From a virus (taxonomy: Duplodnaviria > Heunggongvirae > Uroviricota > Caudoviricetes), in IMG/VR virus record IMGVR_UViG_2529292976_000006: a stretch of 15,731 bases of DNA. The stretch is one strand, 5' to 3'. Both the position numbers and the translations under genes were made by a program. The first letter of the stretch is position 1; each line of letters starts with the position of its first letter. The notes under the pieces are model-generated. The model saw only the letters and a list, made by a program, of their open reading frames with translations, did no database searches and was not told the DNA's origin. This document shows, in pieces, positions 8,546 through 9,790 of the stretch.

Positions 8546-8865
8546 ATCTGGAGCTTTACAGCGTCAATGACCTGTTTAGACCCCTACACGTAAACGTGCT
8601 GTATCATCGGGTGCGATCCGGTCGATGAGAGAGTATCCCCGCGCGAGAGCGAGAACGGCGTGAGAACGGGCAACACTGGCAGGAAGTTGGCGCTGACCAA
8701 TACAGGGAATGTTTTGGGGTGTGGTGAAGGGTTCATGGACGGGAATATGTCGCACGTAAAGCGGCGAGGCCCGAGGGACTATTGCTGAAGATAAGTAGGC
8801 CGAATCGGGTCGAAATGGGTCTCCCACCTGCCACATCGCCAAAGCATTTCCGAGAAAGGACGGTA

Positions 8866-8894
8866 TTGACTGCGTGTGATGCCGGGGCTATATT
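8866..8894 (+). promoter_or_regulatory. Near-consensus sigma70 promoter (TTGACT, 17 bp spacer, TATATT)
   Basis: -35 TTGACT at 8866-8871, 17 nt spacer, -10 TATATT at 8889-8894. Predicted transcription start about 8901. Confidence 0.5.
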
Positions 8895-8955
8895 GGGCGA
8901 ACACCTTATAAAACGGGTGTCGGGATTCTCACCCCGCTGACAATCGAGGCGATAC

Positions 8956-8977
8956 AGACGCGCCAGCGTCTTTTTTT
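8956..8977 (+). terminator. Rho-independent terminator about 75 nt downstream of the 8866 promoter
   Basis: Stem AGACGC (8956-8961) / GCGTCT (8966-8971), loop GCCA, followed by six T (8972-8977). Confidence 0.5.
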
Positions 8978-9142
8978 GTATCGACATACACGCACATCTT
9001 ATCAATGGTGGGCTGTATGGGGCCGACTTCGGTCGGGCTGGTTCCCTTGATTGCCAGTTGTGAGAACCCTGTACAGTCCACCGCCAGCGAGCTTCTCACC
9101 TCCTGCGGTGGTTATTAATCACCAATCAAGGAGGCTGCCATT

Positions 9143-9790
9143 ATGGCTACTATCCCAGTCCTTTCTCAACCTGAAATCACCATTTCCAATGGCCGCGCTG
9201 TTACTACGTCCTTTGCCGTTGCCGAATATTTTTGCAAGCGACACGATAACGTATTACGTGCCATTGCAAATATTGAATGCTCAGAGAAATTTAACGCCCT
9301 CAATTTTGAGGACGTTACCTACACCGACGCCAAAGGCGAACAACGCCCAATGTACCAAATCACCAAAAACGGATTCGTCTTCCTGGTGATGGGCTTCACT
9401 GGTAAAAAAGCAGCTGCATTCAAGGAAGCCTATATTGCTGAATTCGATCGCATGGAAAAACAGCTATGGGAACAGAAACAACTGGCTCTGTCTTCTCCTG
9501 CGATGAATATCAATTTTCCTTTATCGTGGTTTTCAGAGCATCACCCCTACGCCACGATGAACTATGTTGATCGCAAGGTTATCAGCCTTGATGCTTCCGT
9601 ACTCTTCGACATGCCAAGCCCAACTATGCGCATCCTCAACGAGCTACACAGCAAGGGCTATAACGTTGACGCCGCTGTCGCCGAATTTAACGCCTTCAAG
9701 CATCTGACGGAAGAAATGCGCCGTAAATTGCTGGATATTTCCCGCACATCGGAAAAATCTTCCCGCTTTGGTTTCAACGTTAATCTTTAA
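9143..9790 (+). CDS. Rha-family phage regulatory protein
   Basis: 215 aa. N-terminal signature ...GRAVTTSFAVAEYFCKRHDNVLRAIANI... is typical of Rha-family proteins. Strong SD AAGGAGG 8 nt upstream. Confidence 0.7.
   Translation: MATIPVLSQPEITISNGRAVTTSFAVAEYFCKRHDNVLRAIANIECSEKFNALNFEDVTYTDAKGEQRPMYQITKNGFVFLVMGFTGKKAAAFKEAYIAEFDRMEKQLWEQKQLALSSPAMNINFPLSWFSEHHPYATMNYVDRKVISLDASVLFDMPSPTMRILNELHSKGYNVDAAVAEFNAFKHLTEEMRRKLLDISRTSEKSSRFGFNVNL

Follow-up and report, generated by a model that had tools for sequence, protein, structure and literature searches.

Results

IsrK and C4 RNA sequences upstream of a Rha-family gene

The DNA analyzed here, referred to as the window, is a 15,731-nucleotide (nt) stretch from a virus of the Caudoviricetes (IMG/VR record IMGVR_UViG_2529292976_000006), and the element under study is a unit of promoter, hairpins and terminator at positions 8866–8977 that corresponds to the small RNA IsrK. 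Features are on the plus strand unless stated otherwise. The sigma70 promoter (TTGACT, 17 nt, TATATT; 8866–8894) agrees with the consensus at 10 of 12 positions, and transcription is predicted, from comparison with relatives, to start at approximately 8901, 7 nt past the -10 element. The IsrK RNA (8901–8977; Rfam RF01394) is the equivalent of P4 seqA and of the P1 a1/b1 leader. It begins with hairpin 1 (8901–8920, 6–7 pairs) and hairpin 2 (8921–8936, 4–5 pairs), which are the first and second helices of the Rfam IsrK model, followed by a linker and an intrinsic terminator with a 6-pair stem (8956–8971, four G-C pairs), a GCCA loop and a T7 tract ending at 8977. The RNA carries two short sequences, a1 (TTCTCAC, 8926–8932), located in the loop and 3’ arm of hairpin 2, and b1 (CAATCGAGG, 8941–8949). 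The promoter, both hairpins and the terminator (8956–8977) had been proposed in a first-pass annotation of the window, and each was recovered here, with the promoter kept in register in relatives and the hairpins seen in the computed fold. The same annotation had stated that no open reading frame (ORF) is enclosed, and none of at least 20 amino acids (aa) was found inside 8901–8977. Only mechanical ORFs cross this interval; they have TTG or GTG starts and no family match in Pfam or PHROG, and the protein-coding alternative was rejected.

An Rfam scan of the window returned a match to the IsrK covariance model of 58.7 bits (E = 1.3e-10), covering bases 8901–8976 and model positions 1–77 of 77, and a full-length match to the C4 antisense RNA model (RF01695) of 77.1 bits (E = 6.1e-14) at 9001–9088. 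The curated gathering thresholds are 50 bits for RF01394 and 45 bits for RF01695. A permissive scan of 8283–9300 gave nothing credible beyond IsrK and C4. Judged by these matches, the unit is a genuine copy of IsrK, a prophage small RNA that has already been catalogued.

The C4-type RNA starts 24 nt after IsrK and is the equivalent of the P4 CI RNA and of Salmonella STnc1160. It has a long outer stem around two inner hairpins. In the computed fold, most of its b’ sequence (CCTTGATTG, 9045–9053) is in the loop of the second hairpin, and its a’ sequence (GTGAGAA, 9060–9066) lies in the unpaired stretch that follows this hairpin. A conserved ACC(A/G)CC stretch is visible after the outer stem in an alignment of related cassettes. 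In P1 and P4, C4 is released from its precursor by RNase P.

The target of C4 lies in the leader of the next gene (9093–9134) and consists of a2 (TTCTCAC, 9093–9099) and b2 (CAATCAAGG, 9123–9131), the latter overlapping the Shine-Dalgarno sequence AAGGAGG (9128–9134) ahead of the ATG at 9143. All nine b’/b2 positions and all seven a’/a2 positions form Watson-Crick pairs. The a1 sequence of IsrK is identical to a2, and b1 differs from b2 by one base. The gene itself (9143–9790, 215 aa) is the first of the kil-gam-recT-exo early-left cluster and is the proposed regulated gene. Its product matches Pfam Phage_pRha (E = 2.1e-32, residues 21–106) and PHROG 995 ‘transcriptional regulator’ (E = 2.2e-110), and its C-terminal half matches PHROG 1760 ‘anti-repressor’. 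These matches place it in the modular Rha/Bro/Ant antirepressor network.

Conservation of the cassette

Thirteen related loci were fetched and scanned with Rfam, and 12 cassettes were aligned for covariation. IsrK followed by C4, 20–45 nt apart (approximately 25 nt in most), was present in 12 of the 13 loci. These were the lambdoid Shiga toxin (Stx) phage loci phiP27, Stx2_14040, Stx1_14040, vB_EcoS_P27, Stx2_EH0337, Stx2_131990 and F039, together with P88 (P2-like), N15 (a linear plasmid prophage), RCS47 (P1-like), an E. coli island with an integrase, and Gifsy-1 of Salmonella. At the remaining locus, a second E. coli island (L012), only C4 scored above threshold; IsrK sequence is still present there in the alignment. 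Relative to the 5’ end of IsrK, a TAnnnT -10 element keeps a constant position in each of the 12 cassettes. A TTGnnn -35 element is likewise in register in 10 of them and is absent from the two E. coli-island cassettes. The Gifsy-1 promoter reads TTGACA...TATATT. The AAA in the A-rich loop of hairpin 1 is invariant (12/12), and the Rfam ‘c4-a1b1’ family, which describes the a1/b1 targets of C4, overlaps IsrK in three loci. The downstream cargo differs between loci and may be Rha, Ant, Icd-like or a ‘derepression protein’. The position differs as well: Gifsy-1 has the cassette behind Q, Stx phages have it in the nin region, and it is also found in P2-like, P1-like and N15 genomes. In the Stx2 phage F039, 94.4% identical here, the homologous positions are already annotated with the noncoding RNA features ‘isrK Hfq binding RNA’ and ‘C4 antisense RNA’, and isrK was listed as conserved in E. 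coli O157:H7 by Padalon-Brauch et al. 2008 (PMC2330248). Two unrelated Rfam matches were also obtained, sRNA-Xcc1 (75.7 bits) downstream of ant in Stx2_EH0337 (L010, 3260–3343) and the ALIL pseudoknot, an insertion-sequence frameshift element, in Stx2_131990 (L015, 5108–5224).

A 37-codon upstream ORF (9005–9118), putatively coding, overlaps C4 and is the positional counterpart of Gifsy-1 orf45. Its ATG, which falls in the 5’ arm of the C4 stem, is conserved, and each of the 12 cassettes keeps this frame open over at least 37 codons. In the window it is stopped by a TAA at 9116–9118, 24 nt before the rha ATG. In F039, phiP27, Stx2_14040 and Stx1_14040, the upstream ORF continues in frame into the downstream gene. 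The 37-aa product gave a weak match to Pfam Phage_ASH (E = 0.01), and part of the ASH family may therefore consist of translated C4/CI RNA genes.

Individual features of the IsrK unit are less distinctive than the conserved whole. Promoter-like sites number 17 in the window compared with 18.8 ± 4.7 in shuffled sequences, so that the promoter alone is at chance level. The minimum-free-energy fold of the 77-nt RNA (-22.3 kcal/mol) contains both hairpins and is only moderately unusual by itself, since its z-score is -2.04 and 5 of 200 shuffles are equal or better. It is the comparison with relatives, rather than any single feature, that raises the unit above chance.

Covariation of the a and b sequences

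These specificity sequences vary from phage to phage, and across the 12 aligned cassettes the three sites change in concert. For the pairing of a1 with a’ and b1 with b’, 95.3% of cells were paired and 12 of 20 pairs had changed on both sides; the covariation score was 0.594 compared with 0.183 in shuffles, and controls in which the sequences were slid were 35–50% paired. The pairing of a’ with a2 and b’ with b2 gave 90.9% of cells paired, 12 of 16 pairs changed on both sides, a score of 0.653 (0.199 in shuffles) and slid controls of 27–51%. The internal helices of IsrK and C4 were 95.4% paired compared with 38–47% in slid controls, with 21 pairs changed on both sides. Compensatory changes affect five of the seven pairs of IsrK hairpin 1 and two of the six terminator pairs, and the three C4 helices had 100% of cells paired and 14 pairs with compensatory changes.

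Duplex energies gave the same picture of partner choice. The duplex between the middle of IsrK and the C4 loop region had a mean energy of -35.1 kcal/mol for cognate combinations and -20.6 kcal/mol for non-cognate combinations, and the cognate IsrK was the top-ranked partner for each of the 12 C4 RNAs. In the minimum-free-energy fold of the read-through transcript, the middle of IsrK is paired with the C4 region; its energy was -102.1 kcal/mol, compared with -93.3 kcal/mol for independent folding.

Closely related phages allow the specificity changes to be seen directly. The window and F039 (L002) differ by 13 substitutions in 8901–9142, and nine of the 13 form coordinated triplets in a1 (8928–8930), a’ (9062–9064) and a2 (9095–9097; hypergeometric P = 2.6e-8). 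Stx2_131990 (L015, 3042–3290) has its promoter and hairpin 1 in common with the window, but carries a third set of a/b specificity sequences. Family membership, architecture and a three-way co-varying complementarity are established by these analyses.

The locus is a three-part RNA module, composed of IsrK (a1/b1), C4 (a’/b’) and a2/b2 on the ribosome-binding site of the next gene, which the first-pass annotation had not seen. One of its two readings, that of an independent prophage small RNA, holds as to a prophage small RNA of approximately 75 nt from near 8901, which is full-length IsrK; it fails as to independence, because IsrK is the first part of the module.

Comparison with known RNA systems

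The module has the design known from the P1/P7 immI region (a1b1-c4-a2b2), P4 (seqA-CI-seqC), N15 and Gifsy-1 (isrK-orf45/STnc1160-anrP). In Gifsy-1, IsrK has been studied experimentally. There, the 5’ end of the 77-nt RNA was placed by primer extension and its terminator mapped experimentally (PMC2330248), and the isrK promoter yields both the 77-nt RNA and translationally silent read-through transcripts into the antirepressor gene (PMC4825925). Their silence is due to ‘structure A’, in which the middle of IsrK is base-paired with the 3’ portion of the orf45/STnc1160 region; short IsrK acting in trans opens structure A, orf45 is translated, and AnrP is made by coupling, orf45 translation being needed for that of anrP (PMC4825925). 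AnrP then turns on antQ and induces the prophage (PMC4825925).

The window and Gifsy-1 (Padalon-Brauch 2008, Hershko-Shalev 2016) share the Rfam family of IsrK, its length of 76–77 nt, its three-helix layout with an own terminator and a near-identical -10 region (CCGGGGCTATATT). In both, a C4-type RNA and an upstream ORF follow approximately 25 nt later, ahead of a gene of the antirepressor network, and the central part of IsrK is complementary to sequence in the 3’ portion of the C4/orf45 region. The fold of the window's read-through transcript resembles structure A (PMC4825925). In contrast, the a sequence is TTCTCAC here and TTGGCGT in Gifsy-1, and the b sequence is CAATCGAGG here and TTTCACCG there. 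The regulated gene encodes a Rha domain here, with no homology to AnrP (BLASTP E = 0.46); the upstream ORF, at 37 codons, ends 24 nt short of the gene, as opposed to one of 45 codons that overlaps the gene in Gifsy-1; and the module heads the early-left operon after cI, whereas in Gifsy-1 it lies directly downstream of a Q-type antiterminator gene. The ‘orf45’/STnc1160 region of Gifsy-1 (L013, 34131–34329, minus strand) was itself found to be a full-length Rfam C4 match of 69 bits, and IsrK there overlaps c4-a1b1. It follows that a single sequence underlies both the published upstream-ORF model and the C4 antisense model.

P1/P7 immI (a1/b1-c4-a2/b2-icd/ant; Citron and Schuster 1990; RF01695, RF03163) has the same order of elements and the same C4 family, a b2 that overlaps the next gene's ribosome-binding site, and short a/b specificity sequences that differ between heteroimmune relatives. 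In P1 and P7, C4 RNA blocks the downstream ribosome-binding site (PMC12197685). Unlike the window, P1 has an a1/b1 segment that is usually described as part of the c4 precursor and not as a separate terminated small RNA, and its cargo is icd-ant rather than a Rha-family gene followed by recombination genes. The window falls below the RF03163 threshold, and only the IsrK model matched there. IsrK and C4 profiles also detect P4 seqA and CI relatives (PMC10111431), and IsrK was described as a structural homologue of P4 seqA by the Gifsy-1 authors (PMC4825925). Both papers treat isrK as equivalent to seqA and C4 as equivalent to CI. In P4 (seqA-CI RNA-seqC), the target of the processed RNA is likewise duplicated upstream and downstream, a likeness taken from the literature; the outcome there differs, being premature transcription termination that keeps replication genes off. 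The anti-immunity locus of N15, where a small processed RNA controls icd-antA-antB, belongs to a linear plasmid prophage, unlike the module of the window. IsrK (62.4 bits) and C4 (78.8 bits) are arranged there as they are here, ahead of gp32-gp30.

Genomic context and annotation

The region 8283–9142 is 100% identical to Stx phages PA2, VT2phi_272, ArgO145 and others; 182 phage records match it, as do 247 of the 5426 complete E. coli genomes. In the RefSeq layout of an identical prophage, Q, the nin genes, the replication genes and cro lie on one strand, and a LexA-family cI, a type II restriction-modification pair, an 860-bp gap, Rha, Kil, GamL, RecT and Exo lie on the other. RefSeq annotates no RNA in this gap. 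A pseudogene, ‘Rha family transcriptional regulator, internal stop’, is instead laid over window positions 9017–9790; an ‘ash family protein’ pseudogene covers the RNA genes in an E. coli island (L011, 2340–2720), and a long ‘regulatory protein’ coding sequence (CDS) does so in Stx2_14040 (L004, 2272–3105).

The restriction-modification pair (5863–8282) comes after cI on the same strand and takes the place that rexAB has in lambda. It is made up of an Eco57I-type methylase-domain protein and a BsuBI/PstI-family endonuclease, and it ends at a bidirectional terminator (8301–8322). From 8283 to 8866, upstream of the IsrK promoter, is a long stretch without a convincing gene. Within it, 8448–8721 is 98% identical in F039 and Stx2_131990, 8722–8833 is a 112-nt insertion or deletion relative to both, and F039 has two extra hypothetical genes in place of window positions 8302–8447. 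A 65-aa ORF (8431–8628) has no Pfam or PHROG match, and at 8426–8454 there is another promoter-like site (TTTACA, 17 nt, TATATT).

A search for CI operators at the IsrK promoter found no 11-mer, allowing one mismatch, common to the cro-cI intergenic region and 8283–8900. The motif CGGTRTTKAC overlaps the -35 elements of the cro promoter pR (5008–5017, minus strand), of the 8426 site (8421–8430, plus strand) and of the IsrK promoter (8861–8870, plus strand). It is not significantly enriched, with six occurrences in the window compared with 2.9 expected and 17 of 200 shuffles reaching six. The motif could be a shared operator half-site.

Discussion

A model for control of the Rha-family gene

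The results suggest that the unit at 8866–8977 is the IsrK gene of an RNA control module common to many temperate phages and satellites, and that this module regulates a Rha/antirepressor-type gene; we put the probability of this reading at roughly 0.85. Transcription would start near 8901, and most polymerases would halt at the terminator at 8956–8977 and release 77-nt IsrK. A minority would read through into the C4-type RNA and the leader of the Rha-family gene. There, C4 b’ and a’ would pair with b2 and a2, and because b2 overlaps the Shine-Dalgarno sequence, the Rha/antirepressor-type gene would be kept untranslated. By polarity, the genes behind it would probably also be kept down. IsrK, because it carries near-copies of the C4 target sequences, would compete for a’/b’ in two ways, in cis as part of the read-through transcript and in trans as the released short RNA, and abundant IsrK would lift the block, as shown for Gifsy-1. 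The sign of this regulation and the processing of C4 in this phage are proposed by analogy with relatives.

Several observations weigh against this reading. The IsrK match exceeds its family threshold by just 8.7 bits. The stem of hairpin 2 is invariant across the cassettes, and so hairpin 2 contributes no covariation support. Only small gains in energy came from nested cofolding of C4 with its targets, as such cofolding cannot score loop-loop contacts; duplex energies and covariation were used in its place. The Rha-family protein is not a homologue of AnrP, and because the upstream ORF ends before rha with no overlap, the translational coupling seen in Gifsy-1 may not apply here. The sign of regulation is not uniform among relatives: IsrK in trans activates in Gifsy-1, and pairing of the P4 CI RNA with seqA promotes premature termination (PMC4825925). 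Finally, four assumptions made for this phage are taken from relatives: where transcription starts, how efficiently it terminates, that C4 is processed and that Hfq binds.

Alternative explanations

The most serious alternative concerns the sign of the contact between IsrK and C4. If the cassette acted by attenuation, as in P4 and N15, a1/b1 would be a target in the nascent leader, and processed C4 would pair with it and with a2/b2 to enforce premature termination. The 77-nt RNA would then be chiefly a terminated by-product of immunity and not an activator, with the same parts and the opposite sign. The P4 CI RNA does pair with seqA and seqC to cause premature termination, and the Gifsy-1 authors raise the same for STnc1160 (PMC4825925). 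Their own data argue the other way, in that overexpression of Gifsy-1 IsrK in trans raised anrP translation 139-fold (repeats 114- to 171-fold) and constitutive STnc1160 failed to counteract IsrK (PMC4825925). The covariation between a1/b1 and a’/b’ is equally compatible with attenuation, and N15 has the same cassette; its record labels the IsrK terminator, which precedes the antirepressor operon, a ‘putative rho-indep. transcription terminator’. Ravin et al. are said to have reported in 1999 that a small processed RNA of N15 promotes termination. Inspection of the folds of the window sequence revealed no convincing antiterminator alternative to the IsrK terminator, which counts against attenuation here. 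We regard attenuation as possible rather than probable. That short IsrK acts additionally or mainly in trans on host mRNAs, as a Hfq-dependent small RNA similar to AgvB and AsxR of E. coli O157, we regard as improbable. The Rfam name ‘Hfq binding RNA’, the terminator hairpin with its U7 tail and the conserved A-rich loop of hairpin 1 would suit such a role, and phage small RNAs with host targets exist in enterohaemorrhagic E. coli (PMC12197685). However, IsrK has no known host target in any organism, and its variable bases follow the cognate C4 RNA and not host sequence. IsrK is not mentioned in Tree et al. 2014. The microRNA-size RNA 24B_1 of phage Phi24B was set aside as unrelated; it sits in the lom region of the late genes (PMC4426718).

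The other reading of the first-pass annotation was that of a put-like element, in which the nascent transcript would bind RNA polymerase in cis through its hairpins and confer resistance to the terminator at 8977 and to later ones, in place of N. Put RNAs do bind polymerase, with stem I carrying a triplex (PMC9378689). The position fits this idea, as the unit lies between the cI-restriction/modification operon and rha-kil-gam-recT-exo, which is the place of pL-nutL-N in lambda, and an N-like gene is absent; with HK022 putL/putR it has in common only this placement after an early promoter in an N-less phage and a structured nascent RNA. Local alignment of 8895–8980 gave z = 1.0 for putL and z = 0.2 for putR, compared with z = 9.9 for putL against putR and z = 10–21 for the window against IsrK homologues. 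The put regions had been located by their mutual similarity, as put is unannotated in the HK022 record and Rfam has no put family. At E <= 1, neither IsrK nor C4 was matched in the HK022 immunity region. The architecture differs too: put RNAs are approximately 70–73 nt long, with two long stem-loops and no terminator of their own (PMC9378689), whereas the window has two short hairpins and a terminator. The put ligand is RNA polymerase and not a partner RNA; bases that vary and co-vary with C4 RNA would be unexpected if the ligand were the invariant beta’ zinc-binding domain, and in other phages the same cassette is found at non-pL positions. A put-like mechanism is consequently very unlikely. 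One element of that proposal survives, namely read-through into the downstream antirepressor gene, since some read-through of the IsrK terminator occurs in Gifsy-1 (PMC4825925). As the Gifsy-1 promoter feeds these transcripts, the unit is both a small RNA gene and an mRNA leader. That a promoter-like site and a terminator-like hairpin simply happen to lie close together, and have no function, would agree with the unremarkable number of promoter-like sites and the modest z-score of the fold. This explanation is refuted by the full-length covariance-model match, the conservation of the unit across very different phages and the compensatory changes, and can in practice be dismissed.

Implications for Stx phages

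The IsrK-C4 module is already known and has been studied experimentally, and the copy described here is an ordinary family member for which a close relative already has annotations. Novelty lies mainly in where the module stands, heading the early-left operon of an N-less Stx phage, and the specificity swaps among such phages are of interest as well. A literature search found no experimental work on either point, nor any paper testing IsrK or C4 in an Stx phage. For annotation, the 860-bp ‘empty’ gap holds two catalogued regulatory RNAs that are omitted, or overlaid by spurious or pseudogene CDSs, in RefSeq and most GenBank records. Among Stx phages that are otherwise nearly identical, the coordinated swaps in a1, a’ and a2 provide a clear natural case of an RNA immunity system switching specificity. 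Because the module is predicted to control an antirepressor-type gene heading the early-left operon of Stx phages, it could influence spontaneous induction and toxin production.

A more speculative extension, which we consider doubtful at present, is that in the N-less Stx lineage IsrK-C4 occupies the pL-nutL-N position and gates the whole early-left operon (the Rha-type antirepressor, Kil, Gam, RecT, Exo and beyond), with the a/b triplets acting as RNA ‘immunity types’. If so, RNA-RNA pairing would replace the protein- or put-mediated antitermination of other lambdoid phages. The swapped a/b triplets, which all differ among the window, F039 and Stx2_131990, would then decide cross-activation of antirepressors among co-resident Stx prophages, and such cross-activation types would affect induction and toxin release.

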